Virus record (IMG/VR): IMGVR_UViG_3300037722_000745
Span: 1 to 64,000 of that record
Length of the DNA: 64,000 nt
Source: a virus
Taxonomy: Duplodnaviria > Caudoviricetes
Reading direction: 5' to 3' (one strand)
Positions within the stretch are counted from its first letter, which is position 1. Each line of letters starts with the position of its first letter. The notes below the pieces were generated by a model that was given only the letters and a program-made list of their open reading frames with translations, was not told where the DNA came from and did not search any database. Below are positions 1-61,938 of this stretch, piece after piece. The translations under genes and the position numbers were made by a program.

Positions 1-257
1 CTTGAGGGAGGTGAAAGCCTCCCTCGTAATTGAAACGTTGAGGACGCGACGTCTGAAGTCAAAACCGCGTTGACCTTGAGGGAGGTGAAAGCCTCCCTCG
101 TAATTGAAACGTGTTCAAAAACTCGGGCGATCCCTTGCGCGCGTAGACTTGAGGGAGGTGAAAGCCTCCCTCGTAATTGAAACGTGAGAGTGGTCCCAGG
201 ATGCCAATCTCTCTGCCGGGACTTGAGGGAGGTGAAAGCCTCCCTCGTAATTGAAAC
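1..257 (+). CRISPR. CRISPR array 1 (4 repeats, 3 spacers; may continue left of the window)
   Basis: Identical 36-nt repeat CTTGAGGGAGGTGAAAGCCTCCCTCGTAATTGAAAC at 1, 75, 148, 222; unique spacers of 38, 37, 38 nt; repeat has a GAGGGAGG/CCTCCCTC stem, GAAA loop and ATTGAAAC 3' handle. Confidence 0.97.
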
Positions 258-3194: not shown

Positions 3195-4364
3195 TTACCG
3201 CATCGCCTCGGAGAGCACGGTGAACACCATACCCAGAGTGGCCCAGTCGGTCATCGGATCACGAAGCATATCCCCGACCGTGGTGACCTCTACGTAGGTC
3301 CGCTCGGAATCCTCTTCGACCCCATGGGCTTGACCGCGTAAGGTATGGAAGTAGTCCAGTTCAGCGGCCGTGATCTCTGCCGAGTAGGCATAAGCACAGA
3401 CAGAAGATAGCGTTCCGTAGAGTTGACGAGAAGACGCTGGTATCAAACGATCGGGATCGATATCGAATAATACCTCTTCATTCAACTCCTCGACCGCAGT
3501 GATTTTTGGGTCGGTCCCAGGTTTGGACGATCCGCCCGGCATCTCCCGGATGAAACCGTCTGACGTTCGACTAGGGCTCCTGAACTCCCGAACTAGGACA
3601 ACCTCAGTGCCTCTGAGCGTAGGAGCACGATGCCACAAGACCACCGAGGATATGTCAGGTCGGCCAAACACAAATTCGTTGCTTTTGACACGATCCTCCG
3701 ACGCAACATAGACCGACACCTTCAAGACCCAACAGAAGATGCGACGTGCTTTGGGCATGATGGATAGCCACAAGACCCGAGAGTCTAGAAGCTCGTTTCC
3801 TGCTCCCCTCTGCGCTTGATACCAACTCTGAAAGCTTTCTTGCTGCCAGATGTAAAGAGGTACGGTCGTCTCCCCTCCGGTACGAACGGCTCCCTCGCCA
3901 ACCATGTCAACAGCGGCTTCAAGGGCCTTGAGCAGTGTGGTGGCTTGCGGCACCTGAAGCTTATTGGCGTAGTACCGTTGGTAGGTGACCTTGGGGGCTG
4001 TGTCTGGCGCTCCTAACACCACCTTACCGGAGTATTTCCAGAGGCCCCACTCATCGTTCGTCGTGAATCCGGGCAGCCTCTCCAAGTCCCGCGGGATCCA
4101 GAACAAGATGCAGTCGGCTCGATTGAGAGCTGCCTCTTCCCATTCAACTTGCTCGTCGTAGTTCTCAGCCCACTTACCGTCGGCTGGCTCTGGTATATAC
4201 ACGTGACCGTCATACCCCAGCGACCTGAGGACCTGAAGTGCGGAAGGTCTCCAGCTCTCAACCTCAGACTCCCCTTTCTTGGGTTTGCGAGGGGTCGGTC
4301 CCGCGAGGAAGATGGACTTAGTTACTTTGGTTGGGAGAGGCTGACGTGCGTAGACTGGGATCAT
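3195..4364 (-). CDS. nucleoside 2-deoxyribosyltransferase-like domain fused to NUDIX hydrolase
   Basis: SIFLAGPT..SWR..EQVEWEEAALNRADCILFWIPRD..PGFTTNDEWG (NDT-like); C-terminal LVREFRSP..MPGGSS..TAVEELNEEV (NUDIX box variant). Confidence 0.85.
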   Translation of the reverse strand: MIPVYARQPLPTKVTKSIFLAGPTPRKPKKGESEVESWRPSALQVLRSLGYDGHVYIPEPADGKWAENYDEQVEWEEAALNRADCILFWIPRDLERLPGFTTNDEWGLWKYSGKVVLGAPDTAPKVTYQRYYANKLQVPQATTLLKALEAAVDMVGEGAVRTGGETTVPLYIWQQESFQSWYQAQRGAGNELLDSRVLWLSIMPKARRIFCWVLKVSVYVASEDRVKSNEFVFGRPDISSVVLWHRAPTLRGTEVVLVREFRSPSRTSDGFIREMPGGSSKPGTDPKITAVEELNEEVLFDIDPDRLIPASSRQLYGTLSSVCAYAYSAEITAAELDYFHTLRGQAHGVEEDSERTYVEVTTVGDMLRDPMTDWATLGMVFTVLSEAMR

Positions 4365-6096
4365 TGGTGGCGCCCTCTGACAAGGCTCGAAGCGTTCGCT
4401 TGGCAGCTTCGCGCTTCGCTTCCTTCTTGGAAGTCGCCTTGCCCTCCGCCGCTACACCAAAGAATTCACAATTACACACAAACGATGCCTGAGGATCCCC
4501 CGAGGAAGAAAAGCTATAGGTGGGTAACGCATGCCCTCGGCCTTGGGCCCATTCCTGCAACTCTGAAATGGGGTCCTTCCCGGCAATGACAGGTGACACT
4601 ACTGTGGAGGGTGCAAGAGCGTGGTCGTCCAACTCCAACGCAAAGGCGGCACGCCCCGCGAGAAAGCGTAGGGCCGCATGTTGCTTCGCTTTCTTCTTCG
4701 TGGTGCCAAAGCCAATTGCCCGTTCCTCGCCTTGTTGGGCCGCACACTCGAACTGAGGGGGCGCTGAAGAGAGGGTCGTTTCGTGAAACTCAACCCCTTC
4801 CCAACCCATCTGTGATGCCATGGCGAGAACCGAGACCGCCAACTCAGGCTTCCCCTGCAGGTATTGGACTGCCGCTCGTCGCAGGGGAACCCAGTCTTCG
4901 GGCGCCTCTGTGAAGGCCAAGGTGATGCAGACGAGAGGAAGCTGGTTGTCTCCTAGACGTCGCTCGTACTCGTCTATCAAACCCTCGCTGGGACAACCCC
5001 CTGAACGAGCTTCTACTTTGACAACGCGTTCCAGCTGTTTGTCGTTCAGATGACGTAAGCGTCCCCGCTCAACACGGCGTTGGGCGACCCGCGTTGCCGT
5101 GTTCTTCATGTGATTGGCTTTGGTCCGTCGTAGTTCCTCTAGCCCTGTGTTGATGCGTTCCGCTAGCTCGTCAAGCTGTGACTTATCACGAGGGTAAGGT
5201 CCACCAAGAAGATGCGCCCGCAGTTGCCCGTGGTTGAGCAAGTCGGGGTAGCGTCGGATCGGACTGGTAGCGTGCAGGTAGGCCGGTAGGTTCAGCCCAT
5301 AGTGCCCCGTGAGGGTGGCTCCGTAATGTGCTCGATCGAGCAGTAGGTGTGTCCGCTGGCGGACCGTATCAAGACTCACCAACGGCGTGTGTAGAGCGTC
5401 CTCAATCTGGCGCATCAGCTCAGACCGATCGGGAGCCGCTGCCCGAGCCACGTGGTTGCGAAACAAAAGCGGAATGTCTTGCTCTACAGCGAACTCGGCC
5501 ACGGCAGAGTTCGCCAACACCATAAGCTCTTGGACAACGATGTAGCCCACGGTGGCTTCGTGCTTCTTAATTTGTCGGAGATGCCCCTCTTCCGTGGTGA
5601 CCCACCCCGTGTTTAAGTCATAGAGAGCGAGCGCTCCCTGCAGCCGTCGTTGATTCAGCAACTGGTGGCTCAGAGTCACTGCGTGACGAAGCATCTCGGT
5701 GAAGGGAGTGTCCTGCGTCAGCACTGTTGGGATCTGTTCGTAGGAGAGCTTGGCTCTACTCTTGATGGTCGTCAGTCCCAGGCGGGTGTCGATCCGTTCT
5801 AAGTCGTTGTCGAGCTGGATTTCGATCGCCAACACCCTTCGGATTTTGTTCGGCCAAAGAGATAGGGTGGTCTCAGCCTGCCGGGGGAGCATGGGCAGAG
5901 TCCTGTTGGGTAGGTAACGGGACACAATGAGGTCCCGGGCCCGAAGATCGTCTTCGGAGTTAGGAGGGATTTCAGCCGCGGCATCGGCAATGTATATGAA
6001 GATCTTCCAACGATCTTCATATCTTTCGACCCACAGGGCGTCGTCCATATCCCGGGTCTCACGGGCGTCTATCGTAACAGCGGGCAAATTTCCCAT
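4318..6096 (-). CDS. RNase II/R (RNB) exoribonuclease with two C-terminal dsRNA-binding domains
   Basis: TIDARETRDMDDAL, TLPMLP, VQELMVLAN, HYGLNLPAYLHATSPIRRYPDL; dsRBDs ending FGTTKKKAKQHAA and KDPISELQEWAQ...GKATSKKEAKREAA. Probable start ATG 6096. Confidence 0.92.
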   Translation of the reverse strand: MGNLPAVTIDARETRDMDDALWVERYEDRWKIFIYIADAAAEIPPNSEDDLRARDLIVSRYLPNRTLPMLPRQAETTLSLWPNKIRRVLAIEIQLDNDLERIDTRLGLTTIKSRAKLSYEQIPTVLTQDTPFTEMLRHAVTLSHQLLNQRRLQGALALYDLNTGWVTTEEGHLRQIKKHEATVGYIVVQELMVLANSAVAEFAVEQDIPLLFRNHVARAAAPDRSELMRQIEDALHTPLVSLDTVRQRTHLLLDRAHYGATLTGHYGLNLPAYLHATSPIRRYPDLLNHGQLRAHLLGGPYPRDKSQLDELAERINTGLEELRRTKANHMKNTATRVAQRRVERGRLRHLNDKQLERVVKVEARSGGCPSEGLIDEYERRLGDNQLPLVCITLAFTEAPEDWVPLRRAAVQYLQGKPELAVSVLAMASQMGWEGVEFHETTLSSAPPQFECAAQQGEERAIGFGTTKKKAKQHAALRFLAGRAAFALELDDHALAPSTVVSPVIAGKDPISELQEWAQGRGHALPTYSFSSSGDPQASFVCNCEFFGVAAEGKATSKKEAKREAAKRTLRALSEGATNDPSLRTSASPNQSN

Positions 6097-6180
6097 TTTC
6101 TTTTTAGATTTAGCCGGGCTCCGGTGTAATACTTTCAACTCATCCCGTACTCTTTACCACGAGAGGGATGGATACACCGC

Positions 6181-10711: not shown

Positions 10712-10747
10712 CCTGAGGGAGGTGAAAGCCTCCCTCGTAATTGAAAC
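10712..10747 (+). repeat. solitary CRISPR repeat unit
   Basis: CCTGAGGGAGGTGAAAGCCTCCCTCGTAATTGAAAC, 35/36 identical to the array repeat; no second repeat nearby; 9 nt before the rnhB ATG. Confidence 0.95.
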
Positions 10748-10756
10748 AAACGACCT

Positions 10757-11449
10757 ATGGCCTCCAGTAACCCCTCTATCCCGCCCGCCCTTGCACGGGA
10801 CCTCGCGACCGTTGATCATGTTTGCGGATCTGATGAGGTCGGTCTGGGATGCTGGGCAGGCTCTCTTGTGGTCTGCGCAGTTGTTGCCCACCGGTCCTGG
10901 GCGTTTCCCGGAGTCACCGACTCGAAGAAGCTCACCCCGGCAGCTCGAGAGCAGCTATACCCAAGACTGACCGCAGAAGAGTCTTTGTCCTACAACCTGG
11001 TGGAATTCTCGGCTCAAGAGATCGATGAGATGGGAGTTGGTGTAGCTTGGAAGAAGGCCCATAGCAACGCCATCCAGGGCGCCCTGGACCTCCACGAAAG
11101 CCGCGGGCACTCAGATACCCCTCTGGTCATCGTAGACGGCAACAGGGGACTTCTGGGCGCACTGGCGCTACCTAAAGCCGATTTGCTCATCCCTGCCGTC
11201 TCGGCCGCCTCCATCATCGCCAAGGTTTACCGTGACCGGCTGATGAAGAAACTGGACGCCGAATATCCCGGCTATGGGTTCTCTTCGCATGTGGGCTACG
11301 GGACGAAACAACATCAGAGGGCGCTTAGCCTCCGGGGTGTGTGTCCGATCCACCGGATGAGCTATGCACCGATGAAGTTCATGCGCAAGAAGACGGAAGA
11401 AGACCCCGGCCTCACTGCGTTGGGGACTGGGATCCATTGCGAGGACTGA
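10757..11449 (+). CDS. rnhB: ribonuclease HII
   Basis: GSDEVGLGCWAGSLVVCAV, DSKKLT, IVDGN, KADLLIPAVSAASIIAKVYRD, HVGYGT..H. Confidence 0.93.
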   Translation: MASSNPSIPPALARDLATVDHVCGSDEVGLGCWAGSLVVCAVVAHRSWAFPGVTDSKKLTPAAREQLYPRLTAEESLSYNLVEFSAQEIDEMGVGVAWKKAHSNAIQGALDLHESRGHSDTPLVIVDGNRGLLGALALPKADLLIPAVSAASIIAKVYRDRLMKKLDAEYPGYGFSSHVGYGTKQHQRALSLRGVCPIHRMSYAPMKFMRKKTEEDPGLTALGTGIHCED

Positions 11450-13504: not shown

Positions 13505-14303
13505 TCACGGTATCGAACCAACACTCAGTCTCGCCTCGCTTTTCTCTTGCCGCTTACGTTGAGCCTTCGACATCTTAGCACGAGTCTCTGCACTCAACTT
13601 ACGCCCTAACCCTCTACCTTTGTTGGCAGCAGATATCTTGTCCTTGACTTCTTGACTTCTCGATTTACCAGTAATTGCTTGTGTGGCTTTTTTGGTTTGC
13701 CCTTTTCGGTATAGAGGGTTCCACCCACTAGCAATTTTTTTCTGCCAAGCCTCCTTGATAGCGGCGTTCCTCCTAGCTATGACTTGAGGTGATAGCTTAG
13801 GCCCAGGTTTGCCTCTTTTAGTGTCTGCCATTTTTCGGTAACTGGCCTCAGTTAGTACAGGACCTCTTCCCCTTTTGGCCGCAGACATGTTAGCTCTAGC
13901 TTCAGCCGTGTGAACCCTACCCTTATTGGCTTTAGATAGCTTGGCCTTTGTCGTAGAGGATTTTGGGTGGCCAGGAGATGCGCCCTCACCTCCATCAGTC
14001 GTATTGCACAGATTGCACCCTTGATCTCTGTGCCAAGCTATTTGCTTCTTCTCGGCCTCTTCCCAATCACCCACCCGACCCTGTCTCTAGTATTTTGAAA
14101 TCAGGCCGCAGGTCTTGTTGCAGCAAGGAACGAAGCTAACAAACAAGATGCGTGTTGGTCTTGGCTCTTTTCGCGTAGTGCAGATGATTCCTAAGCCGTT
14201 TAGGTACAGTCTGACAGGTCTTACCCACATAACGGATATCATCCGGGAACCTAGGATCAACCAGAGCGTAAATCACCCAAATGTTGTCAGAGAATTTTTC
14301 CAT
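13505..14303 (-). pseudogene. GIY-YIG/NUMOD3 homing endonuclease, inactivated
   Basis: From ATG 14303: VIYALVDPRFPDDIRYVGKT; TAG at codon 56 (14136-14138); frameshift near 14075 into the NUMOD3-repeat frame (TRAKMSKAQR); AT-richer than the flanks. Confidence 0.85.
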
Positions 14304-16455
14304 CTTTGAGGTAGGTGTCTTCTAGACCCGGTATAAGATATTGGCTATTAAGGGTAGTGGGTTCGTGGCCCACTTTCGCAGCCGCCAATTCTACAGCGTC
14401 CTTGAATTCTTTCTTCAACTGTTCTGCCTTCTTGGCCTTATCCTTAGGTAAAGGACCGCCTTTAGTCCGTGTCTGTCTTAAGGAAGATCTAACTTCGTCA
14501 TTGGCGTGGTAGCCGCGAATGTCCTTAGCCGTTGCGCCGAAGGGTTCGAGATAGGCGTTGACCTTCTCGGCGGTAACACAACCGTCGTCCCACGACAGAA
14601 CGCACGTGTCATCGCCTTCGAGCGAATTGTAAGCTTCACGTAGCGCCTTGCGGATGCCGGCGTCAGTGACTCTCTTCTCGTGCTTAACACCGGACTTGCC
14701 CGTGTACCGGATGAGCGCCCCGTCGGACTTGAAACTCACGTGGCGGCGTTGCCAACCCGTTACACCGAAGTGCCCCTCACTCGCAGACTCGTCGTTGCCG
14801 ACCCGTTCGTACGTGTGGTCCATGAGGGCGACCGCCAAAGCCGTCAACTTCGTCTCCGGGTCGCTCGACTTCAGATCCCGCTTGACCTGGGCTCGCAGCT
14901 TCTTGAGCGCCTTTCCGAGCTTGGCGATGCGCTCGGCCTTCTTATTGTTGCGCAGGGCCACCTGGCGCTCACTATAGAGGTAGATGGTGTTGCCTTTATC
15001 AGACTCCCGCTTGGCTTTGTATCTGGCGACAACAGTCTTGGCGTCAATCATAGGCCACCATACAGAGCTAGAATTTCCTTGGCCCAAGCAACTTTGTCCT
15101 CGACTCTCTGGCCCCTCTCGCATCTGCATGTAGGGCCTCTCGCAATGCCTTCGCATCGGAGAAAACTCGAAACTGGCCACGACCTGAGCTGATAGTAGGC
15201 TGCGCCCCAGAGCGGCTTTCTGGATGGTGCGGTCAATCCCTCCCCGTTTGGCAATTCGAAGACCTGCGACACGGAGATTGGGCAGAATCATCTGCACCCA
15301 ATGACGGATCAGCGGGTCAACTGTTCGAGGCCCATACCCAATGAGCATCCCCAGAGCCTCGCAGAAGGCTTCCTCTGGGTTCTTGCCTGCATACCCGGTG
15401 ACGGGGTTCTGCGGAACCGCGAAGGTATCCCCGCGGGCGACAGCAGCCTCGAAGTCCTCCTTCTTGCGGATTTCCCGCACCTCGCCGTGCCCGAACCCGA
15501 GCAGTTCAAGCTGGATGGCCAACGTCGGGTCCACGTCCTTGAGCAATTCACCCATTTCGTGGATCCACGCACCGTCAGGCCACAAGCGCAACGCCTTGTC
15601 GATATCGATCGGTCCGTAATTACCACGAATCGCGGTATCCCAGAACGTGCGATCCTTCTGCCCTAAGTACACCTTGTAGATGTGGTGGCCCATCTCATGC
15701 GCGAGGATCTTCGCGAGCATCTCGGGGCGCTCCCCTGCCGTCAACGACACCTCGATGTACCGACGCTCGTACCGACCCCCTTCATCAAGTTTCCCAACTA
15801 CCTTGGCGTGGATAGGTAGCATCATCCTGAGCATCGGCGGAAACACCTTGCCCGCCCTCTTCCGAAAGATCCGTAGACCGGCTCGGAAGCGCTCCCAGCT
15901 CCCCGCGTACTCACCCTCGATGTCTCCAATTACACGAACCTGGAAACCCTCGACCTCTACCTGGTCAACGTTGGTGATCGGCACATCGTAGTGCTCACGC
16001 CCGATCTCCGACAGGAAGTCGTCCAAGACCTTCCACAGCTCGCGGGCGATCCGCTTGAGCTTGGCGTCCCACTTCTTACTCGCTCGCTGATACTGCTGGA
16101 AGGCCCCTTCCTCCGTGAAATTCTCGTTGTATTTGTGCGGACGGTCCAGCGGCATCTCGTTCAGTGCGAGGTAGAAGTCCCAGCCGGTCTTCCGAAGCTT
16201 CCGCTCGTGCCAGTCTCTGAGATGCTCCGAGATCGAGTCGTCATATTTGAGCTGTTGGTTGACGAATTCGTCGAAGTAGATGCGGTTGAAGCGGTTGCGA
16301 AAAACCTTGAACGCCTCCCGCAGCTCGCTCGCCTGCTTGTAGTCTCGGACCCGCGGGATGTTCTTCGAGAGTTGCAGGAAGTCCTTCCGAAGCTTCTGGA
16401 TGGCGTCTCGGTCGATGCGAATCGACCGGGCAAGGACGGCAGCGGCAGTGGTCAT
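14287..16455 (-). CDS. zincin metallopeptidase-like domain in frame with DNA topoisomerase IB (topo domain 14287-15051, possibly with its own start)
   Basis: LAHEMGHH and YAGKNPEEAFCEAL; topo IB motifs TYERVGN, YTGKSG, TAKDIRGYHA, VGHEPTTLNSQYL; probable start ATG 16455 overlaps the upstream stop. Confidence 0.88.
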   Translation of the reverse strand: MTTAAAVLARSIRIDRDAIQKLRKDFLQLSKNIPRVRDYKQASELREAFKVFRNRFNRIYFDEFVNQQLKYDDSISEHLRDWHERKLRKTGWDFYLALNEMPLDRPHKYNENFTEEGAFQQYQRASKKWDAKLKRIARELWKVLDDFLSEIGREHYDVPITNVDQVEVEGFQVRVIGDIEGEYAGSWERFRAGLRIFRKRAGKVFPPMLRMMLPIHAKVVGKLDEGGRYERRYIEVSLTAGERPEMLAKILAHEMGHHIYKVYLGQKDRTFWDTAIRGNYGPIDIDKALRLWPDGAWIHEMGELLKDVDPTLAIQLELLGFGHGEVREIRKKEDFEAAVARGDTFAVPQNPVTGYAGKNPEEAFCEALGMLIGYGPRTVDPLIRHWVQMILPNLRVAGLRIAKRGGIDRTIQKAALGRSLLSAQVVASFEFSPMRRHCERPYMQMREGPESRGQSCLGQGNSSSVWWPMIDAKTVVARYKAKRESDKGNTIYLYSERQVALRNNKKAERIAKLGKALKKLRAQVKRDLKSSDPETKLTALAVALMDHTYERVGNDESASEGHFGVTGWQRRHVSFKSDGALIRYTGKSGVKHEKRVTDAGIRKALREAYNSLEGDDTCVLSWDDGCVTAEKVNAYLEPFGATAKDIRGYHANDEVRSSLRQTRTKGGPLPKDKAKKAEQLKKEFKDAVELAAAKVGHEPTTLNSQYLIPGLEDTYLKDGKIL

Positions 16456-17840
16456 GTGACGAGCCTCCAGCGGATCTGTACCTGGTCTGGCATGGGCTTG
16501 CCCAGAACGAAAAAGGCGAACGTCTCGGCGAAGTCTTCCGACACGTTCGTTTTGGCGTAAGCGCTCACCGTCTCCACAGAGGCGTTGTTGTCCGGGCTCA
16601 CATATCGCTGCTTCGGCCGAACGAAGTTCTTCTCGACCCAACCTTCACCACGTTCATGGGCGGCGACGAGGTCTTTCTGACGTTGGTTTCCAAACACGTA
16701 GCTAACCCAAGCGAGGAAGGGGGCCTCTAAAGAGGGATCCGACAAGAATCCTACCGCCCTGCGCGGCGAGAACTGAGCCTTCACGAGCGCCTGGAACATG
16801 TCCTGGCGCCCCTTAAGGTCGATACCCTTGCCACTGTAGGCGTCCTCGTAGGCATCCCGCTGGGCGGCGCTGAGCATTTTGTTCCACCACCGGTGGCCCA
16901 GCTCGTGGACCAACGTGTGGAGATCGTCGAAACGCTTTCGGGACTCGACGTTTAGCTTCAAGAGGTCGGCCGACTCGACGTACTTACCTGCAAAGCCCTT
17001 GCCGCTCTTGGCCCCCACCAGCTCAACCTTGCCGTACAGGGCCTTACCGAACCCCTTGGACTTGAGCCGGTCGGCCGCGGTGTCCAGGACCGCAAGGCTT
17101 TCAGCGTACTCGCTGGAACGGTAACCGTACTTGTTGACGATCTGGAAGGGCCCGTGCCGGAACTCCTTCTCGACCTCCGTGTACTCCTGAAGGCGGTTCT
17201 GAACCCGACGCAGGGAGGCCAGAGTCTCGGCGATGGAGTCTAGCGACAAGTTGATCCACGCCCGGGTCTCCCCATCCTCCTGATTGACGTAGCGCGACTC
17301 GAACGGGTACTGGAGCCGGCGAAGCCAGCTCAAGACGTTCTTCATCTTCCGTTGCTCGTCCTGGCGCTCGAACCGAACTCCCTCGAACATCGTCGCCAGG
17401 GGCTCCAGCATCTCCCCTAACCGGACAAAGAGGCGACGGGCTGTCGGGATGTCTCCTTCCTCGATAGCGCGCTCGATGGCCGGCCGGGCCTCGGTGAAGT
17501 CGCGAATATAGTCCGCCACGGGGCGGACCTCTGTTCCTGCGAACCGCATCACGACCCGCTGCGACTCTGAGGCGAGCTTGTCCAGGGCCTTAGTCTCAGG
17601 CACCGCTGCGGCCGGCAGCTTCCGAATCGTGTAGAGCCCCATGATCCGGTTGCTCTTGCGCCCCTTTGGGACGGGCTCGATCTCGATGTAGGGGATCCCG
17701 CTGGAGTCTAGGAACATGCGGACGATTTTGCCGCGCTTGTTCTTGAACTTTCCATACAGGATGTACTCGCCCGGTTTGAAGTAGGCAATCAGGTGGCGGG
17801 TGGCTACGCGGGCGGCCGGCTGGCGGAGTTCCTCGAACAT
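16452..17840 (-). CDS. modular protein with SH3/KOW-like N-domain and zincin (HELGH) domain
   Basis: LVHELGHRWW, YAKTNVSEDFAETF; VATRH and VVMRF motif copies. Confidence 0.78.
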   Translation of the reverse strand: MFEELRQPAARVATRHLIAYFKPGEYILYGKFKNKRGKIVRMFLDSSGIPYIEIEPVPKGRKSNRIMGLYTIRKLPAAAVPETKALDKLASESQRVVMRFAGTEVRPVADYIRDFTEARPAIERAIEEGDIPTARRLFVRLGEMLEPLATMFEGVRFERQDEQRKMKNVLSWLRRLQYPFESRYVNQEDGETRAWINLSLDSIAETLASLRRVQNRLQEYTEVEKEFRHGPFQIVNKYGYRSSEYAESLAVLDTAADRLKSKGFGKALYGKVELVGAKSGKGFAGKYVESADLLKLNVESRKRFDDLHTLVHELGHRWWNKMLSAAQRDAYEDAYSGKGIDLKGRQDMFQALVKAQFSPRRAVGFLSDPSLEAPFLAWVSYVFGNQRQKDLVAAHERGEGWVEKNFVRPKQRYVSPDNNASVETVSAYAKTNVSEDFAETFAFFVLGKPMPDQVQIRWRLVT

Positions 17841-44717: not shown

Positions 44718-45593
44718 TTACCAGGGCCCCTTACGCTTCGGATGGTATTTGGAGCCCGATGACCCGGGCGGCAGCAGATCGTCGGAGTTTGATTGGGATG
44801 GCCTCGAAGTTGATTGGGATGACTTAGACTGGTCAAACAAATTGCTTTTCGGTGGGTCGACTCCCATCCCAATTGCATTGTCGTTATCCTCGACTTCCTC
44901 CTGTACCTCTCTGCGCAATCGGTTGACTCTCTCTCTAGCTTCCTCAACCCCCCCACCCAGATCGACTATGTCATAGTTCTCTTGGATGTAGCCCCAAGCA
45001 CCAGGAGTGTAGGCTTCATGCCCTGGGCCAAAGAACTCAACATCCTCCGCAATCCAGGTGGGTTTGCCTGCGCCCATTCGAATCGCCATCGTTTCATGAA
45101 GCACATCCCCAGCAGCTCTGTTCCGGTGGAGAACCCCGAGCCGTATGATGACTAAGCTCGGCGGTAGAAGAAGATCGTTGAGGTTGTTGTAAGTGGCGAT
45201 CGTCTCCCGGTTTTCCTTGGATCTCTTCGTGTAGGCAAAGTCCCCAAGCCATACCCGCACCAGCTCCTGGTCGTCCGTGGTCCGAAACGTGAAACCCTTG
45301 GAGTATTCCCACTTCACCGAAAGGACCCAACGCAAGTGCCGGCAAACCATCTCCCAGGTCCCCCTCAGGAACAGGTTCTCTTGGGTGGCATCCCGGTCTT
45401 CAGTGTAGAGAGGACTCCGAACGTGCTTCACGCCTGAAATGACGGGACCCAGAAATGCATGAAGCTGCTTGCGTTTGAGACAAATGCACGGAATCGGAAT
45501 CAGGTCCTCGCCGTCGGTCTCATAGCGCCAGTGTTTTCCTTTGCACTGTGGGCATATGGTCTCCTCAGGCACGATTGGTAGATACACCGGCAT
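44718..45593 (-). CDS. possible DnaC/DnaI-like helicase loader
   Basis: CPQC...CIC Zn motif then degenerate P-loop fold (LLLPPSLVIIRLG, KPTWI); next to DnaB. Confidence 0.5.
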   Translation of the reverse strand: MPVYLPIVPEETICPQCKGKHWRYETDGEDLIPIPCICLKRKQLHAFLGPVISGVKHVRSPLYTEDRDATQENLFLRGTWEMVCRHLRWVLSVKWEYSKGFTFRTTDDQELVRVWLGDFAYTKRSKENRETIATYNNLNDLLLPPSLVIIRLGVLHRNRAAGDVLHETMAIRMGAGKPTWIAEDVEFFGPGHEAYTPGAWGYIQENYDIVDLGGGVEEARERVNRLRREVQEEVEDNDNAIGMGVDPPKSNLFDQSKSSQSTSRPSQSNSDDLLPPGSSGSKYHPKRKGPW

Positions 45594-48429
45594 CCGAGTC
45601 TCGCAGACTCTTCATCAGCTCGTAGGAGAAGCTACCCTCACTCTCGAAATTCAAAGCTCCGACCGCAGCTTCCCCAAGCACTTTGTCGATCAGGTCTTTC
45701 TTGCTTTGAAGGATTTGGAGTGTGTAGTGATCGATCGTCTTTTTTGCTCGACCCGGACGCTCCGCTACTAGGTGGATCGCTACGACGTGTTGGTGAGGAG
45801 AGCCGATACGAATCGGTCGCCCGAGAAGCTGGACGTAGTTCCCCCACGACCAAGGAGCATTGTAGAAGATCATCGCCGCAGCGGCTTGTAGGTTGATCGA
45901 CTCCGAACCCGCATCTGAGATGAAGATGACCCGCACATCGGATTCAGGATCCTGAAACTCCAGCATGGCCCTCTGCCGAGCTGGATTGGTCTTGGTGTCG
46001 ACTACTTTGCCTGTGATCGCCGTGCTCTCCACCCCAGCTTTCTTGCACAACTCCTGAAGACGGGGGATGAGGGACGCGAATCGTGTGTACACAATCACCT
46101 TCTCCCCATCGAACTCCCCGGTGATCAGATCCAACATGGCTTCCTCTTTCGAGGACAAGGATTTCACGTTGTCCGCCTCACCCAACAACTCGAGCCCGAT
46201 AGTGTCCCCCTCTTCGAAGCGAAGTAAGCTCAGAGAATCAACCGTTTGTTGGCAGTAGATGAGCGCAGTCAGCGTTTTGGTCTCTTCGTAGTCCCGCACC
46301 TCTCCGTCCCCCAAAGCGAGCACGCCTGACAGTGCCTCCTCGTACTTCGTGTTCTCCGCTTTAGATAACGTGACCCGAACGTCGCGCGTGAGAAGCTTGG
46401 GAAGCTCGTCCGAAATCTCATGCTTCGGCCGTCCGAGGAAGAACGGATCAATGCGCATCCGGAACAGCTCCAGGTTCTTGTACCCGATGATGATCGGAAT
46501 TTTCCTTCGACCTCCTACAGGTTGCCACTTGACCTCGCAGAACAGGTCGAGGAACTTCGTCTTCGTCGTGAAGACTCTTGGGTAGATGCACTTGTAGATG
46601 GCGTAACCCTCGATCAAGTTGTTCTTGAGCAAGGTAGCTGTGAGCCCGTAACAACGATTTGCATGGCTGGCTAGCTCTGAACACACCTGCCACGTCTTTG
46701 TCGACGGGTTCTTGAACGCGGTGCAGTTAGAAACTAGGGCCCCTCCAGCTATGTAGTTATGGTTACCCTCGACCTCCAAGTCATAGACGTAGTCAAGATG
46801 CTCCCGCACCTTGGGGGCACGCTTCCATGGAGTTTTAGCCAGCACCACATCCCGTACCAAACCAACCGTAGGGTTACGATCCAAACTCTCCAACAGGAGT
46901 GGTTCTTTACCTGGAAACTTGTGCTCCACCCCAGGTAAAGAGCCAGGCAACAGCTCTAGGAACCTGTCGGCCGCCTCTGCGTCCAAGTACAACACCCAAT
47001 GACGACCTGACTTGCTAATCTGCGCCTGAACCCCCCACCGCCACCGAAGCCAACCCGCTAACAATTCGTTCTCGCCGTAGGTGAATCCTTGCGTGTTTAA
47101 AATAATACGACGGCGAACCACCCCTTCTTTGGTTGTGTGCGTCTGCAACGATCCGTCATCCCCATACCAGATCGCAAGACCTAACGGGCCAACGCGGCTC
47201 AACCATTCTACAGAGGGGTGCTTACGGCCTTCTCGATGCGTAGTCAGTGTTGAACACAAATGTGGGTTGGCTCGTAGCCTGAACCGGCAAATGGGAGAAC
47301 CCCCGTACCCGCTAGGGGTTGTGCTAATCTCAGAGGTGCCAAGCGAGGCTAACAAGCCCTTCTTGAAATCCAGGTATCTTCGCTGTGCTTGCCCATGTAC
47401 AAAAGACACCCCCCACAAACTACGCTTGGGGTGGGACACACTAGCATCCCCAAGCAAACCCCCCAGAATAATCTGGAGTTGATCATCAGAAGGTATTGTG
47501 TCCGTAAAGGTAGCTGTCTCGGAGCCCTTCCTAAGACGCCCTGCTTCCGTTGGTTTGCCGTCGCATCTGTAGAATTTATGATTTCTGGTTACGATCACGC
47601 TGTTGGCATACCGAAACTCAAGTTTCACCAACCCCTTCGTGCGCAATGGGTTACGGACCCAACGGATTACCCGGCGTGGTTCCATGGAGTTGGTCGCCCA
47701 GTTCCATGACAACACGGATACAGGTTCTCGCCCGCATACGATCTTGCCTATCAACCGCTCAGAGCCATCAGCTAAGCGTATTGGAGTGTGGTACTCGAAA
47801 CATTCGTCGTACACGACAGTGAGGCCGTCGATCTTCTGCATGAGGCCGTTCAACAACCCGGGGCTCATCGGCTTCTTCATGTCCGGCTGCCCGTTCTTCT
47901 TGAGCGGACGGGTGGCTCCCTGATTCCAGTCGCGGACCAAGGGAGCATACCCCATGACCATCACCGCTTTCGGGTCGTCCGGGCCCGTTGGATGATTCAA
48001 AAAAGCGTCGTAGGTTTCCCGACGCTCATCCGGACCTCCGTTTGCCAAGTAGACTTGAATACCTGTGGCGAACTTGTCGATCTCTGCCGCCCACTGACGC
48101 AGGGCGCTCTTGGGGGTGATCACGACCACTTTGTTCGTCGGTTCTTTCTGCCAGGTGTAGCAAAAAGCTGCAATGCAGGTGGGCGTCTTGCCCGTGCCAG
48201 TGGCGTCCCCGAGCACCATCCTCTTCATCGACATCAGATGGAAGACCGCCTGGACTTGATAGTACCGGAGCTTGAACGGCTGGACTTTGCCGTCGATGCC
48301 CACGATCTCAGATCGCAGCATCGAGATGGGCTTGAGCGCTACCGTCTTGCTCTCCCGGACCTTTTTGAGAAGCTCGTAGACCTTCCTGTGCTTCTCTACC
48401 GGATCTTCTTTAGGTGTTTTCGCGGCCAT
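45565..48429 (-). CDS. SNF2-family helicase with intein
   Basis: LGDATGTGKT, YDE|C, LTATLLKN, VIVYTRF, GSESINLQ, WSWGNYVQLLGR. Confidence 0.93.
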   Translation of the reverse strand: MAAKTPKEDPVEKHRKVYELLKKVRESKTVALKPISMLRSEIVGIDGKVQPFKLRYYQVQAVFHLMSMKRMVLGDATGTGKTPTCIAAFCYTWQKEPTNKVVVITPKSALRQWAAEIDKFATGIQVYLANGGPDERRETYDAFLNHPTGPDDPKAVMVMGYAPLVRDWNQGATRPLKKNGQPDMKKPMSPGLLNGLMQKIDGLTVVYDECFEYHTPIRLADGSERLIGKIVCGREPVSVLSWNWATNSMEPRRVIRWVRNPLRTKGLVKLEFRYANSVIVTRNHKFYRCDGKPTEAGRLRKGSETATFTDTIPSDDQLQIILGGLLGDASVSHPKRSLWGVSFVHGQAQRRYLDFKKGLLASLGTSEISTTPSGYGGSPICRFRLRANPHLCSTLTTHREGRKHPSVEWLSRVGPLGLAIWYGDDGSLQTHTTKEGVVRRRIILNTQGFTYGENELLAGWLRWRWGVQAQISKSGRHWVLYLDAEAADRFLELLPGSLPGVEHKFPGKEPLLLESLDRNPTVGLVRDVVLAKTPWKRAPKVREHLDYVYDLEVEGNHNYIAGGALVSNCTAFKNPSTKTWQVCSELASHANRCYGLTATLLKNNLIEGYAIYKCIYPRVFTTKTKFLDLFCEVKWQPVGGRRKIPIIIGYKNLELFRMRIDPFFLGRPKHEISDELPKLLTRDVRVTLSKAENTKYEEALSGVLALGDGEVRDYEETKTLTALIYCQQTVDSLSLLRFEEGDTIGLELLGEADNVKSLSSKEEAMLDLITGEFDGEKVIVYTRFASLIPRLQELCKKAGVESTAITGKVVDTKTNPARQRAMLEFQDPESDVRVIFISDAGSESINLQAAAAMIFYNAPWSWGNYVQLLGRPIRIGSPHQHVVAIHLVAERPGRAKKTIDHYTLQILQSKKDLIDKVLGEAAVGALNFESEGSFSYELMKSLRDSDAGVSTNRA
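46726..47802 (-). mobile_element. intein with LAGLIDADG homing endonuclease (359 aa)
   Basis: Starts CFEYHTPI after YDE; ends VYDLEVEGNHNYIAGGALVSN before Cys+1; internal GGLLGDAS and IWYGDDG. Confidence 0.93.
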
Positions 48430-56742: not shown

Positions 56743-59700
56743 CTACGCCTTACGGGTCAACGGGATTGCCGACGAGTCAATGAGCATCCGAGTGTTGTTG
56801 CGCACAAGCGGATGCCCCTCAATTCGATAGAGGTCCGCAGCCGCATACCCCTCTCCGGTGCCATTCGTACCAATACGGATGGGCGTCGGGGCTGAGGACC
56901 CAATGGGCGCATCGTAAACGCTGGTCAGAATCAGCATCATCAGCTCACTGCCAGCCGATGCCTCATTTGAACCCACGTTGGTAACGGAGTTCCGAACCAA
57001 CATGGCCCGTCCTTGAAGCGTACGAACATGATCCGTAGTGGCCGTGGCTACCGAGTTGTTCAGAGATACTGAGCCTCCGGGCCTCGGCCCGGAAGCCACA
57101 AACACGGAGCCACCACGATGCGTGCGGAAGTTCGTGTCCAGAGCGAAGTTGTTGGCCTCCCCATCTACATGGACCAAAACATCTCCAGGAGACCCAACTC
57201 CAGAGGTCGCGGTGCTCAGACGCACCTCGTGATGCTCGAGAGCCGGCGATGCAAGACCTGTGGATTGCCCTGATCCCACGGTATTTCGGTAGACGAGAGG
57301 AGCCATCACGTCCGTGTACCCGAAGTGCTGACCTCGGAAATCCTTGTCACGAAACAACGCTCCTAGAGGCAGCCGCTCCGTGCACCCGAGATACTCGGTA
57401 CCGATGTCCGGCCCGTCTCCAGCGAAGTTCGTAGGGAGAGCCTTGGGTCGTGGGTCCACACCAGAAGACGGCGGGTAGACGGACGGATCCTCGTAGGCCA
57501 CATTGGTGAACACCAAATCAGCGTCCGAAGCGTCTCCTGAATAGCGGCCCGTACCCAACGAGGTCGCGAAACTCAAGGAAGCTAGCACCTCCAACGCCTT
57601 CTCATTAGGCCGAGTCAGGTTGTCCGCATCCAATTCAGTCGACACCACATCAAAGGCATCGTCTGACATGAGCGGTCCAGGGACGTACGGGAGATCGATG
57701 TAGCTGTTCTGAGATCCCCAAGCATCCCCTTGGTACGGGGTGCGACTGTAGTTCACCAGGATCTGATCGGAGGCCGTAGCGGGTCCTGGGAGAAGCGCCG
57801 AAGGACCCGTAACACGCTTGTTGATGTTGTCTTCTCGGCTACCCGCAGCTCCCGGGTCTCCTCCGCTGCCCACATCGTCCCACGCGTTAACATTGCCAGG
57901 GCGGGTCAGTATGAGACGAGCCTCTGAATTCAGATCGAATGTGCCACGGTCAAACCCAAACACGGCCGCCTCTACCACATAGGTGCCCGAGGCGAAGTCC
58001 GCGATGGGGTTCGGCGACCGGGTGATATCGATCGCGTTGGCGTTCAAGATGAAAGTCGAGTCCCCATCCGAGTCAATTTCAATCCACATGGGCGGCCCAT
58101 CGCCCGACCTCATAGCCTGTCGCAGGAGATTCGTTGCGGTGCCGCCTCCGCCTGGCCCGCGCTCATCGGTGAAAGGGGTGCTCGAACTGATGTAGTCCTG
58201 GGCCTCGTAGACACCGAACAGGCGAGCAGCGCCATAGAAGGGCGGCAATTCCAGCCCCTCTCGACCTAGCCCTCGGGAGTCAGTGAAAAAACGCATCCCA
58301 GCAGTCTGATTCCCACTGATAACTCCCGCTGTGTTGAAACTGAGGGGGTTCGACGCAAAATCAATCTGGCTGAATACAGAGTATCGAAAAGAGGTGTTGC
58401 TATACGCAATGTAGTTGAATTGGTTCTCAACCACAGCGCCTGGAGTGCTCCGGATCATGTAGTTGATGCCGCTAGCAAAGTCGCCATCCTCCGCAATCAT
58501 TGGCACGTTCAACTCGCCCCAGCCCGGGACAAGGTGCCGGGGTAGGCTGACATAGATGTTGTTGAACGCGGGGTCCCCCGCTGATTGACTACAAAACAAC
58601 CCAAGGGGGTCTGTCTGTGTCCACTTCGGCGTGACGCCATCGACTGCGTTGAGGGGCATGACTCCTTGGGCGCTGTGAGTCGTGTAGCTGATGCCCACAG
58701 TAGCCTGGGCTCGAACAGGACGGTCGAGGGTGTAGCTAGTGGCTCCAACACTGAGGATCGTATAACGACCGGCGCCGGGTCCAGACGGAATCACCAAGGC
58801 ATCCCCGCCAACCGTAGTCCCTACACCACTCGCGTCCTCAAACACCGGCGTGTTAGCGCTGCTTGTGAAGCCTGTCGCACTGGTCAGTTTGGGAGTTGGA
58901 ACAGGGTTCGCTGCGTCCCCATCCACTGTCAGAAGATTGGGGAATTCGATTCGACGGAAAGGCGTAGCAATCACGGTCTTGCTGCCAAGATCCGCGTACA
59001 TCTCCGTGATCGACGGTAGCAAGCCGTTGAACTCTGCCGTCCGGTACTTCGCCCACAGAGGAGCCCACGCGACACGTGCTACGTGGTTGGTGTCAGGGAT
59101 GCCTCGCTCCTGCACCATCAGCAGCGACGACGGGTTGAGATAGGTGATGTTGTGCAGCGAGTCGGGGCGACGTGCGAGACCGCGTCCCGGACCATAGACT
59201 GCATGCACCCGGATGTGGAGCTGACGCGGAGACGCCGTCGTCGTAAGCTGGCTCGGGAAGCTTCCCGATAGCGTGATGATCAGGTTGTCCGCAGGCCCTG
59301 GGACCGCTGGCGTCACTGTGTACATGGTCGACGGTAGGTCGCCCGTCTCGCCAGCAAGACGCAGTTGAACAGCGCCCGTAACGCTGTCATTCAGCCACCG
59401 GATCTGATCCGTAGCACCCGCTTGAAGCCCCGTTTTGAGTTGGTTGACGGGGATCTCAATGATGTCGCCGGCTGTGAATTGGTTGCCGACCGTCTGGTTC
59501 GTCGTGTTAACGGTCAGAGATAACGACCACGGCTCGTTGATCGCCACACCAGGGCCCGGCGGCACAACACCCGAGTTGGGTCGAACCACGCACTCGATTG
59601 GTTGGATCGTCGCCGCATCAGAGAAGACCGTACGGATGTTGTCTGGAGCGTCGAGTTGCGTCACGCCCAATGACACCGCGGCCGACTGAATCGCATCCTG

Positions 59701-61062
59701 GTAATGGACGAAGGTCCCTTGGGGCCCACCGCCGGAGCGCTTCCAGTTGGCTCGCAGCTCACCCCTCAGCAGCTTGTCGACGTTGTTCTGAAGCAGCGCC
59801 GTGTAGTCCATCCCGTTAGGATTGACCGAGTGCCGTAAGTCGAGAATATCAGTGAGAGCGATCTGGTCTGAAAACAGCTCGTCGGGGCGCCCAGAAATGA
59901 CACGGATCTCAGACCCCGCCAAGTGAGCTTCCCCGATCGTTCCGTTGGTGCCTCGAGTCAGACCATTCAGCGTCGTACCGGTGATCGATGTGTAGGTCAG
60001 GATCTCGTCGCCGATTTGAATCGTCACCGCCGTCGCCGGGGAGGCGGGGAGCGGAATATTCGTGACTGAAGCAAGCGTCGCCGAAGTGGCCGTTGCGTTG
60101 AGATCCGCCGCAAGGGTTGGAACGGTAGAGAACGTCTTAACGCCTGTGCGATCGACTGCCGTCGGGTTGCGGTCGAACCCCCCATTCAAGTTCTGCGATG
60201 GGTTTCCATTCCAACCAATCGAGTTCCTACGGAACACCACCGCGATCGGAACGGCATAGCTATAGCCATCCACGGTCCCTAGCGAGGAACTAGTCCCATC
60301 ACCCGCACGCCACAACCCAGGGTCCCCCAGCTCCTCCCGCATGTTTTCAAACGTGAACGCAGTCACAGCCGAAGCCGCACCCTGCGCTTTGACAACCACA
60401 GGATCGAAGCCATCCGGGTATGTCGTCAGACCTACCAAGCCCTTGACCACACGGATGCGGTACTGGATTTGAACTCGCTGCTCTGTCTCAAACCCAAGAG
60501 CAGGATCGAGCAAATCATCTGGGAGAAAAGAGCTGCCAGACTCGACATTACCGTAGCGGTAGATGCCACTAGCAGACGGCTTGTTTGTAGTTGACGGGTT
60601 AGGCTGAATCCTGGCCTTCCACACCTCCAAAAAGACGAAGTCAATCCGGAAGTCCCCTGAATTGGAGGGAGGGGGATCAAGCGCAATGACGTTCGTCGTG
60701 TCGGTGTCATTAGGACTCCCGGGAGGAGTGCCCGTCCGTGTGCCTGTCACCGGGATCAACCACCCGTTGACGTTCGCCCACATGATAGATCGCTGCTCAC
60801 CGGCTCGCTGCGGACCGAACTTGAACCAGTTCGACCATGTGGAGTGGGTTTGGTAACTTGCCTGGGGGTTGGTCTCGTTACCCAAAAACCCAGAAGGTGT
60901 GCCGCGCAAAACCGCAGACTGCAAAGCTTCGTGAGCCAACTGCTGTTGCAGTATCAGAGCTGCGTCGGTTGGAGGCTTGCCCTGCTGCCAAATAGTGGTG
61001 ATGTACTGCGTGTCTGCCGATTGCAGGACACGGGACACTCCGGGACCTAGATTGTCGCTCAT
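56743..61062 (-). CDS. large virion structural protein (tail/baseplate-like), 1439 aa
   Basis: Gly/Thr/Ser-rich beta protein with IQIGDEILTYT..LTRGTNGT..AHLAG module common in tail proteins. Confidence 0.7.
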   Translation of the reverse strand: MSDNLGPGVSRVLQSADTQYITTIWQQGKPPTDAALILQQQLAHEALQSAVLRGTPSGFLGNETNPQASYQTHSTWSNWFKFGPQRAGEQRSIMWANVNGWLIPVTGTRTGTPPGSPNDTDTTNVIALDPPPSNSGDFRIDFVFLEVWKARIQPNPSTTNKPSASGIYRYGNVESGSSFLPDDLLDPALGFETEQRVQIQYRIRVVKGLVGLTTYPDGFDPVVVKAQGAASAVTAFTFENMREELGDPGLWRAGDGTSSSLGTVDGYSYAVPIAVVFRRNSIGWNGNPSQNLNGGFDRNPTAVDRTGVKTFSTVPTLAADLNATATSATLASVTNIPLPASPATAVTIQIGDEILTYTSITGTTLNGLTRGTNGTIGEAHLAGSEIRVISGRPDELFSDQIALTDILDLRHSVNPNGMDYTALLQNNVDKLLRGELRANWKRSGGGPQGTFVHYQDAIQSAAVSLGVTQLDAPDNIRTVFSDAATIQPIECVVRPNSGVVPPGPGVAINEPWSLSLTVNTTNQTVGNQFTAGDIIEIPVNQLKTGLQAGATDQIRWLNDSVTGAVQLRLAGETGDLPSTMYTVTPAVPGPADNLIITLSGSFPSQLTTTASPRQLHIRVHAVYGPGRGLARRPDSLHNITYLNPSSLLMVQERGIPDTNHVARVAWAPLWAKYRTAEFNGLLPSITEMYADLGSKTVIATPFRRIEFPNLLTVDGDAANPVPTPKLTSATGFTSSANTPVFEDASGVGTTVGGDALVIPSGPGAGRYTILSVGATSYTLDRPVRAQATVGISYTTHSAQGVMPLNAVDGVTPKWTQTDPLGLFCSQSAGDPAFNNIYVSLPRHLVPGWGELNVPMIAEDGDFASGINYMIRSTPGAVVENQFNYIAYSNTSFRYSVFSQIDFASNPLSFNTAGVISGNQTAGMRFFTDSRGLGREGLELPPFYGAARLFGVYEAQDYISSSTPFTDERGPGGGGTATNLLRQAMRSGDGPPMWIEIDSDGDSTFILNANAIDITRSPNPIADFASGTYVVEAAVFGFDRGTFDLNSEARLILTRPGNVNAWDDVGSGGDPGAAGSREDNINKRVTGPSALLPGPATASDQILVNYSRTPYQGDAWGSQNSYIDLPYVPGPLMSDDAFDVVSTELDADNLTRPNEKALEVLASLSFATSLGTGRYSGDASDADLVFTNVAYEDPSVYPPSSGVDPRPKALPTNFAGDGPDIGTEYLGCTERLPLGALFRDKDFRGQHFGYTDVMAPLVYRNTVGSGQSTGLASPALEHHEVRLSTATSGVGSPGDVLVHVDGEANNFALDTNFRTHRGGSVFVASGPRPGGSVSLNNSVATATTDHVRTLQGRAMLVRNSVTNVGSNEASAGSELMMLILTSVYDAPIGSSAPTPIRIGTNGTGEGYAAADLYRIEGHPLVRNNTRMLIDSSAIPLTRKA

Positions 61063-61333
61063 CCCTGTTACCTTCTGATCCGATTTGCAAGCCCACTAGA
61101 CAGGCTGTCAAATGGGCCGGCTTATAGGGAGTTTCTCGGTTTTCGAGAGGCCCGGTGGTGTGTTACCCTCGGGAGTCTCTCGCATTCTGCGGGTTCTCTG
61201 AGAATTCAATAGGTTAGAAAGATCCGGATCCCGATCGGCCTCTGGATCCAAGGGGTCCCAACCCATGATCCCACAGGGGGGTCTCGCAAACCGCCTTGTG
61301 AACCTCCGAATTCACACGGTTTCTCAGAATCCC
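61063..61333 (+). promoter_or_regulatory. CRISPR leader, divergent from the structural gene
   Basis: About 270-nt non-coding region ending GGGGGGTCTCGCAAAC...CAGAATCCC before the first repeat; the variant repeat lies at the far end. Confidence 0.6.
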
Positions 61334-61884
61334 CTTGAGGGAGGTGAAAGCCTCCCTCGTAATTGAAACAAGACGGCGAAGGGCAACGCAACCTCGGAAC
61401 CTACGGGCTTGAGGGAGGTGAAAGCCTCCCTCGTAATTGAAACTGCTCGCTGAGTGATCGATCGAGATTGGTGGTGAAGCTTGAGGGAGGTGAAAGCCTC
61501 CCTCGTAATTGAAACCTGGAGCTGGGTAGCCGCTGCCTCCGCTGCCATGGCCCTGCTTGAGGGAGGTGAAAGCCTCCCTCGTAATTGAAACCAGGAAGCC
61601 CAGGCCGTCTACGCGTCGCAGAGCGACCCTTGAGGGAGGTGAAAGCCTCCCTCGTAATTGAAACCAGACAACTGAGTTCCTACGGAACACCACCGCGATC
61701 GGGCTTGAGGGAGGTGAAAGCCTCCCTCGTAATTGAAACGACGGGCGACGTCGTCGCTGGCCTGCCGGGATTCGGCTTGAGGGAGGTGAAAGCCTCCCTC
61801 GTAATTGAAACCAGGCGGCTGCGCTCCTTGACGGCGGCGACGAATCCGCTTGAGGTAGGCGGATGCCTACCTCGTAATTGAAAA
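61334..61884 (+). CRISPR. CRISPR array 2 (8 repeats, 7 spacers)
   Basis: Same repeat at 61334, 61408, 61480, 61556, 61629, 61704, 61776 and variant at 61849; spacers of 38, 36, 40, 37, 39, 36, 37 nt. Confidence 0.98.
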
Positions 61885-61938
61885 CTTTAAGATTTACCGA
61901 CCTTGAACTGTAATACTCTAGAGGGGGCCTAAAAAACC

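Follow-up and report, generated by a model that had tools for sequence, protein, structure and literature searches.

Canonical bacterial type I-C systems, such as that of Desulfovibrio vulgaris, consist of Cas3-Cas5c-Cas8c-Cas7-Cas4-Cas1-Cas2. In these systems, Cas5d/Cas5c cuts the repeats at the base of their hairpin, which leaves an 11-nt 5′ handle on the CRISPR RNA (crRNA). A "type I-C variant" of CRISPR-Cas has been described from huge phages (Al-Shayeb et al. 2020, Nature 578:425, PMC7162821, Extended Data Fig. 9), and the type of that system, its missing adaptation genes, and the existence of phage-borne arrays without adjacent cas genes have all been known since 2020 (PMC7162821). Virus-borne mini-arrays exploit host Cas proteins in conflicts between viruses (Medvedeva et al. 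2019, reviewed in PMC11656645), and the arrays that viruses carry target close relatives of their carriers (PMC11656645). Finally, solitary repeat units, termed Racr, are known to act as RNA anti-CRISPRs (PMC11656645).

Here we set against these systems two CRISPR arrays found in a window of 64,000 nt, the whole stretch of DNA that was analyzed, which comprises bases 1-64000 of one IMG/VR virus record of 323,174 bp, classed as linear. The two arrays are part of a set of at least four leader-plus-array modules that, together with several solitary repeats, is spread over a huge-phage genome (Table 1). On balance, they probably encode the guide RNAs of a type I-C variant borne by the phage, with a cognate cas operon that lies in the unassembled part of the genome and not in the host. 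The locus resembles the huge-phage type I-C variant: here, too, a huge phage also carries CasPhi/Cas12j, the repeats have the geometry of Cas5d-like processing, the arrays are compact, and the operons of relatives contain neither Cas1 nor Cas2 and have a helicase in place of Cas3. The locus differs in that the cas operon is unseen in this contig, and in that at least four leader-bearing modules and the solitary repeats are distributed across the tail and replication core, whereas those of G014, a complete relative described below, are clustered at the cas locus. Dispersed arrays with their own leaders in core genome regions are a modest twist on the known system. With canonical type I-C, the locus shares a hairpin repeat, a predicted 11-nt 5′ handle ending in ATTGAAAC, and, in relatives, homologues of Cas5c, Cas8c, and Cas7c; TTC, the canonical protospacer-adjacent motif (PAM), stands beside the single protospacer-like match. 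Unlike canonical systems, it is virus-borne, its repeats measure 36 nt rather than ~32 nt, its spacers measure 36-40 nt, and its relatives encode a ResIII helicase and a ~250-aa protein instead of a Cas3 HD nuclease and an adaptation module.

Like viral mini-arrays, the arrays have no adjacent cas genes and at least one spacer that probably derives from a close relative's gene. However, mini-arrays hold 1-2 spacers and have host-identical repeats, whereas array 1 holds at least 3 spacers, array 2 holds 7, and the other two hold 12 each; moreover, a Cascade encoded by phages goes with the repeat family, and the search for a host bearing the repeat found none. Single copies on the contig, such as that at 10712-10747, recall Racr. 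Unlike Racr, the features in question are full arrays with unique spacers and leaders (that of array 1 being off the contig), and any decoy role is putative.

Table 1. Features of the arrays and associated genes. Positions are those of the 323-kb contig, whose bases 1-64000 are the window.
Feature	Position	Strand	Description
CRISPR array 1	1-257	+	4 perfect 36-nt repeats at 1-36, 75-110, 148-183, 222-257
Array 1 spacers	37-74, 111-147, 184-221		38, 37, 38 nt
Solitary repeat	10712-10747	+	starts CCT- not CTT-; no leader; short gap before RNase HII gene (10757-11449)
Tail-like gene	56743-61062	-	1439 aa, divergent from array 2; bears the protospacer-like site
Protospacer-like site	60209-60250	+	within the 1439-aa tail-like gene; TTC at 60209-60211, then 39 nt (60212-60250)
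Array 2 leader	61138-61333	+	196 nt; 93% and 90% identical to the leaders at 64598 and 120214
CRISPR array 2	61334-61884	+	7 perfect repeats and a degenerate terminal repeat; 7 spacers of 36-40 nt
Array 2 perfect repeat starts	61334, 61408, 61480, 61556, 61629, 61704, 61776		
Third array	64598-65526		13 repeats, 12 spacers; same repeat
Fourth array	120214-121201		12 spacers; same repeat
CasPhi/Cas12j	218308-220464		718 aa; E = 2e-159 to CasPhi-2, PDB 7LYS
Other single repeat copies	223772, 285970 (-), 286131, 322376 (-)		

That the source is a phage is shown by its baseplate and tail genes, by replication genes of phage type, and by its virus record in IMG/VR. Among the gene products of the window are a family A DNA polymerase, a DnaB-type helicase, a type IB topoisomerase, an RNB exoribonuclease, and an SNF2 helicase that a LAGLIDADG intein interrupts; baseplate and tail genes follow directly downstream of the window. 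By polymerase, the closest deposited relative is an uncultured 485-kb phage, at 32% identity. Two genes are odd cargo for a phage: the RNB-domain exoribonuclease (4318-6138, minus strand) is fused to double-stranded-RNA-binding motifs, and the topoisomerase IB (14287-16641, minus strand) is of the eukaryotic type. The gene of the SNF2-family helicase with its LAGLIDADG homing endonuclease intein lies at 45565-48429 (minus strand), and two more genes with inteins, at contig 159633-163910 and 202893-207125, are ribonucleotide reductase-like. The gene that separates array 2 from array 3 (61939-64000 in the window, extending to contig 64380) begins with a lipoprotein-type signal (MTRSIFVFSLILTAC...) and contains 120-nt tandem repeats at 62499-63254; it gave no match to known families. 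The 3′ end of the contig (322976-323174) is made of identical 52-nt tandem units (…CTCTACCTGAGGCCGAGGAC…), at which the assembly probably broke; they may be another type of repeat array or an artefact.

Arrays 1 and 2 share a 36-nt repeat, CTTGAGGGAGGTGAAAGCCTCCCTCGTAATTGAAAC, and have none of their 10 spacers in common, as the original prediction had stated; mapping of the repeats and of 10 unique spacers bears this out. Eleven perfect copies of one 36-mer make chance impossible. Both arrays show the generic features of CRISPR, namely, identical direct repeats of 23-50 nt and unique spacers of similar length, and array 2 is also bounded by a leader at one end and, at the opposite end, by a degenerate terminal repeat. 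This eighth repeat (61849-61884) carries 6 substitutions, with compensatory changes in the stem (GAGGTAGG/CCTACCTC). With these array features and with the baseplate, tail, and replication genes, the view that real CRISPR arrays lie in a phage stands. Since base 1 of the contig is the first base of a repeat, the assembly truncated array 1, whose leader lies beyond the contig. In effect, the 323-kb contig is an incomplete fragment of a huge-phage genome that starts inside array 1. The prediction had missed that the window is the first fifth of this contig, and it had also missed the solitary repeat at 10712-10747 and the near-match at 60212-60250.

The array 2 leader gave no match in a sigma-70-type promoter scan. 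Its 90-93% identity with the leaders of the third and fourth arrays indicates that the three are copies of one leader-plus-array module. The third array contains two loop variants, ACCC in its first 8 copies and GAAA in the remainder, and two duplicated spacer pairs (S2 = S4, S3 = S7), a pattern suggestive of block duplication through recombination. In the fourth array, two "spacers" are over-long (73 and 65 nt), and one of them includes half a repeat, so that units there have been fused or degraded. The whole contig holds 34 spacers, with more than 30 repeat copies of intact stem and handle over 320 kb. The solitary repeat at 10712-10747 is on the same strand as its flanking genes, and the 10 nt that follow it (AAACGACCTA) are seen again after the last repeat of array 1. 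Since this repeat stands upstream of the RNase HII gene and on its strand, a Cas5c-type nuclease could cut the RNase HII mRNA.

The repeat folds into a stem of 9-10 bp with a tetraloop, followed by a single-stranded tail of 10-11 nt (-18.2 kcal/mol, z = -5.7). The tail ends in ATTGAAAC, recorded likewise as AUUGAAAC, and these last 8 nt of the repeat are the generic class 1 handle. A hairpin with an 11-nt tail is the substrate geometry of Cas5c, and it recurs in the repeats of G001, G014, and a 453-kb JGI contig, all introduced below. Rfam CRISPR-DR covariance models gave no match at E <= 1 over window 61000-62000. We class the repeat family as type I-C-like on three grounds: the geometry of the repeat, the linkage to cas5c-cas8c-cas7c in relatives, and the TTC at one protospacer-like match. 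A host type I system of I-G/I-C-like kind, or a type III system, had been predicted; the I-C-like part of that typing is upheld by the geometry, the relatives' operons, and the TTC, and type III and I-G found no support.

Six-frame Pfam profile searches of the whole contig found none of Cas1, Cas2, Cas5d, Cas7, and Csd1/Cas8c. PADLOC gave no Cas match for any of the window ORFs, nor for the array-flanking ORFs taken singly, and tblastn of the five operon proteins of G001 against the 323-kb contig found no homologue. The absence of a cas gene from the 64 kb, which had been claimed, is confirmed by these null profile and PADLOC searches. The cas5c, cas8c, and cas7c genes are likewise not found in the same genome as the arrays within the 323-kb contig, a record that CheckV places at ~68% completeness, a figure that is an estimate only. 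The prediction had called for a search of the remaining genome, and the outcome was mixed: no type I genes in 323 kb, but a Cas12j gene. The phage is therefore not cas-less as proposed, although its Cas12j is accompanied by an unrelated repeat. The array next to Cas12j (contig 217.7-218.2 kb) has 7 of these repeats, in which the hairpin abuts the spacer, and the window repeat is unlike this type V-J repeat. Cas12j, with its own array of an unrelated repeat, is therefore not the window arrays' natural partner. The deposited-phage collection contained no phage with a close Cas7c or CasPhi.

One large ORF beside array 2, of 1439 aa, was considered as a new effector and rejected. Pfam, NCBIfam, and PADLOC gave no match for it, and its PHROG matches, to tail and tail-fibre families, are weak; its role as an effector is also ruled out by a 62% identical orthologue in G001 that lies distant from the G001 cas operon. 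Judged from these similarities, the protein is a tail- or tail-fibre-like virion protein and no Cas effector.

Relatives of the phage provide the genes that the contig does not show. The exact 19-nt 3′ half of the repeat had 0 matches elsewhere in IMG/VR and 0 in JGI metagenome contigs, and exact-repeat scans of the same two collections yielded no companion contig with the repeat beside cas genes. Searching for the 11-nt tail GTAATTGAAAC in an array-shaped arrangement led to G001 (IMGVR_UViG_3300033489_000001), a genome of 411,618 bp with direct terminal repeats that is 100% complete. G001 is collinear with our contig over ~285 kb, and 160/347 ORFs match, mostly at 45-90% amino-acid identity. 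Its arrays, with ~60 repeats at 189.0-193.6 kb, have the hairpin position and the GTAATTGAAAC handle of the window repeat, along with many compensatory stem variants. Directly upstream of these repeats, on the same strand, lie Cas5c, Cas8c, and Cas7c (PADLOC E 1e-26 to 1e-47), and the operon further includes a 771-aa ResIII helicase and a 256-aa protein matching no known family; Cas1 is missing from this complete genome. At 343444-343479, G001 has a single repeat that is syntenic with the third array, of 13 repeats, and that precedes the orthologue of gene 65591-66211. Between the two genomes, array sites appear to be conserved and array size does not.

A clade-wide survey with a conserved core protein located G014 (437 kb, complete), whose arrays flank the same five-gene operon, cas5c-cas8c-cas7c-ResIII helicase-~250-aa protein. 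The stem of its repeat, GAGGGAGG...CCTCCCTC, is identical to that of the window repeat, with a freely variable loop and a different 11-nt tail. Thus, the window repeat has its handle in common with G001 and its stem in common with G014, which places all three in one repeat family. A search for Cas7c homologues led to the 453-kb JGI contig and to an ENA contig, both with the same five-gene order; the former bears more than 45 repeats with a hairpin and an 11-nt tail ending in ATTGAAAT, and the flanks of its cas locus show no synteny with our contig. Physical linkage of the repeat family to cas5c-cas8c-cas7c is seen in relatives only, namely, G001, G014, and these two contigs. Of six complete relatives, two (G001 and G014) have both the repeat family and Cas7, the other four lack both, and none has arrays alone; G002, which is complete and the closest by core protein (96% identical), has neither. 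Neither G001 nor G014 carries Cas12j. The operon module of the relatives includes a helicase and no recognisable nuclease. A conserved protein of ~240-256 aa always follows the ResIII helicase (L030:8044-8814 in G001, L087:13363-14088, L170:11467-12183) and is a candidate for the missing nuclease or for an accessory function; its AlphaFold model, with a mean pLDDT of 55 from 3 sequences, is too poor for fold assignment.

It is useful to align the contig with G001 to see where a cognate operon might lie. Positions 0.3-285 kb of the contig correspond to 280.6-411.6 kb plus 1-120.6 kb of G001. The accessory region of G001 at 120.6-280.6 kb, which contains the cas locus at 194-201 kb, faces the poorly conserved 285-323 kb of the contig together with the gap. 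Array 1 is exactly at the edge of this gap, and the minus-strand repeat copy at 322376 is 0.8 kb from the other contig end. The gap that faces the cas region of G001, the co-occurrence of arrays and Cas7 in complete genomes, and the lack of any host with the repeat together favor an unassembled part of the phage as the home of the operon. The "cas-less" state of the arrays is at least partly an artefact of incomplete assembly. Several findings run against a phage-encoded operon. No cognate cas genes are seen in 323 kb, there is no companion contig, and the module is sporadic in the clade, G002 being without it. Moreover, since the contig already contains all of the conserved core and G001's counterpart of the gap is accessory DNA (13/253 ORFs shared), nothing essential is demonstrably missing from the contig, which also counts against this reading.

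If the system is indeed phage-encoded, its operation can be outlined from the repeat and from the operons of relatives. Transcription of each array would run rightwards from the conserved 196-nt leader, and a Cas5c-type endonuclease would then cut at the 3′ base of each hairpin, so that every crRNA would have GUAAUUGAAAC as its 11-nt 5′ handle and the hairpin at its 3′ end. Cas7, Cas8c, and Cas5 would assemble with the crRNA into a Cascade that recognises TTC-flanked DNA, after which the helicase, with no Cas3 HD nuclease at hand, would aid the destruction of the target, or the complex would silence it. Competing related phages would be the main targets, and the phage's own copy of the tail gene would be protected by seed mismatches. 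The cognate cas operon itself would sit in an unassembled accessory region of this phage.

The one spacer with a protospacer-like match speaks to this proposal. Spacer 5 of array 2 (61665-61703) matches the site in the tail-like gene at 34/39 positions, with mismatches at positions 3, 4, 8, 9, and 39; four of these five (positions 3, 4, 8, and 9) fall in the PAM-proximal seed. The adjoining TTC is the canonical type I-C PAM, seen at 1 site only, which is the phage's own seed-mismatched allele. In the frame of the tail gene, the spacer encodes ...RRNSVVW, the phage's own gene ...RRNSIGW, and G001 ...RRNSVSW. Since the spacer differs from the phage's own allele, it was probably taken from the allele of a related phage, in which case the carrier's copy would escape. 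A spacer of this kind fits the targeting of close relatives by virus-borne arrays (PMC11656645), and it speaks for a system that puts real pressure on DNA. The wider search for spacer targets that had been suggested yielded none beyond this near-match in the phage itself. Both window arrays, compared by blastn with 50,697 deposited phages, gave no match at E <= 1; 22-24-mers of all 3 array 1 spacers and of the self-like spacer had 0 matches in IMG/VR; the conserved core of the self-like spacer had 0 matches in metagenome contigs; and all 34 contig spacers matched G001 through chance 12-17-mers only.

The arrays could also be truly orphan, with Cas5c/Cascade provided in trans, whether from the host's type I-C (or I-G) system or from a related phage that co-infects the cell, an explanation that we regard as possible yet unlikely. 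Consistent with it, no cognate cas gene lies within 323 kb, each array has its own conserved leader so that independent expression is possible, the module is sporadic among relatives, and the generic class 1 handle ATTGAAAC makes cross-use conceivable. The use of host Cas by virus mini-arrays is documented as well, but the documented borrowing arrays have host-identical repeats (PMC11656645), and no such repeat was found here among the genomes of ~185,000 prokaryote species. A search of these genomes with exact GTAATTGAAAC handles returned 26 DNA stretches that match the handle-pair pattern, none with the hairpin; they are cyanobacterial and other unrelated repeats. Within the scope of these exact handles, the prokaryote collection holds no repeat identical or near-identical to that of the phage. 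In addition, every complete relative with the repeat family encodes its own Cascade, and the contig is incomplete and begins within an array. The borrowing of host Cas proteins, which the original prediction favored, is thus the weaker reading, since complete relatives tie the repeat family to a phage-encoded Cascade and no prokaryote genome searched has the repeat. The myxobacterial host that it had in mind likewise gained no support; a 2026 preprint on myxobacterial viruses concerns Cas12m and offers nothing for a myxobacterial host here. A related outcome, which we hold to be clearly unlikely, is that the completed genome will contain no type I-C genes, in which case at least four leader-driven arrays of a phage-specific repeat family, with more than 30 spacers, would provide guides only, for the Cascade of a co-infecting relative or of the host.

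That the arrays and solitary repeats do not interfere at all, being relics of a lost phage CRISPR system or Racr-like RNA decoys for Cas proteins belonging to the host or to a rival phage, is in our judgment very unlikely. The solitary repeats at 10712, 223772, 285970, 286131, and 322376 would suit such a role, given that single repeat units are known as RNA anti-CRISPRs (PMC11656645). The duplicated spacers of the third array and the fused units of the fourth indicate recombination rather than adaptation, Cas1 is missing even from the complete G001, and no spacer target was found in any collection searched. Against this reading stand more than 30 copies with intact stem and handle over 320 kb, compensatory stem changes, leaders conserved at 90-93%, and unique spacers of CRISPR-typical length. 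The TTC beside the match of the self-like spacer and the seed mismatches of that spacer are, moreover, what selection against self-targeting would produce in an active system. Finally, use of the window arrays by the phage's own CasPhi/Cas12j is barely credible: no CRISPR effector other than this one (E 2e-159 to CasPhi-2) was found on the contig and Cas12j processes its own crRNA, but it has a 7-repeat array of an unrelated repeat immediately adjacent, with the hairpin abutting the spacer, whereas the window repeat places an 11-nt single-stranded tail between the two, the TTC upstream of the 39-nt spacer is type I-C-like (single site), and G001 and G014 carry the repeat family without Cas12j.

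The phage-encoded type I-C variant that we prefer has several implications. First, the phage adds one member to the small set of huge phages that have both the type I-C variant repeat family and CasPhi, which as a discovery is incremental. Second, the arrays of the phage type I-C variant can be dispersed over conserved core regions of a genome, with a separate copy of the 196-nt leader for each array. Were the completed genome to contain no type I-C genes, the phage would act as a CRISPR cheater in warfare among phages, its arrays being seeded deliberately across its core operons. Finally, one spacer looks aimed at the tail gene of a sibling phage, which supports the view that Cas3-less phage systems serve phage-versus-phage competition.
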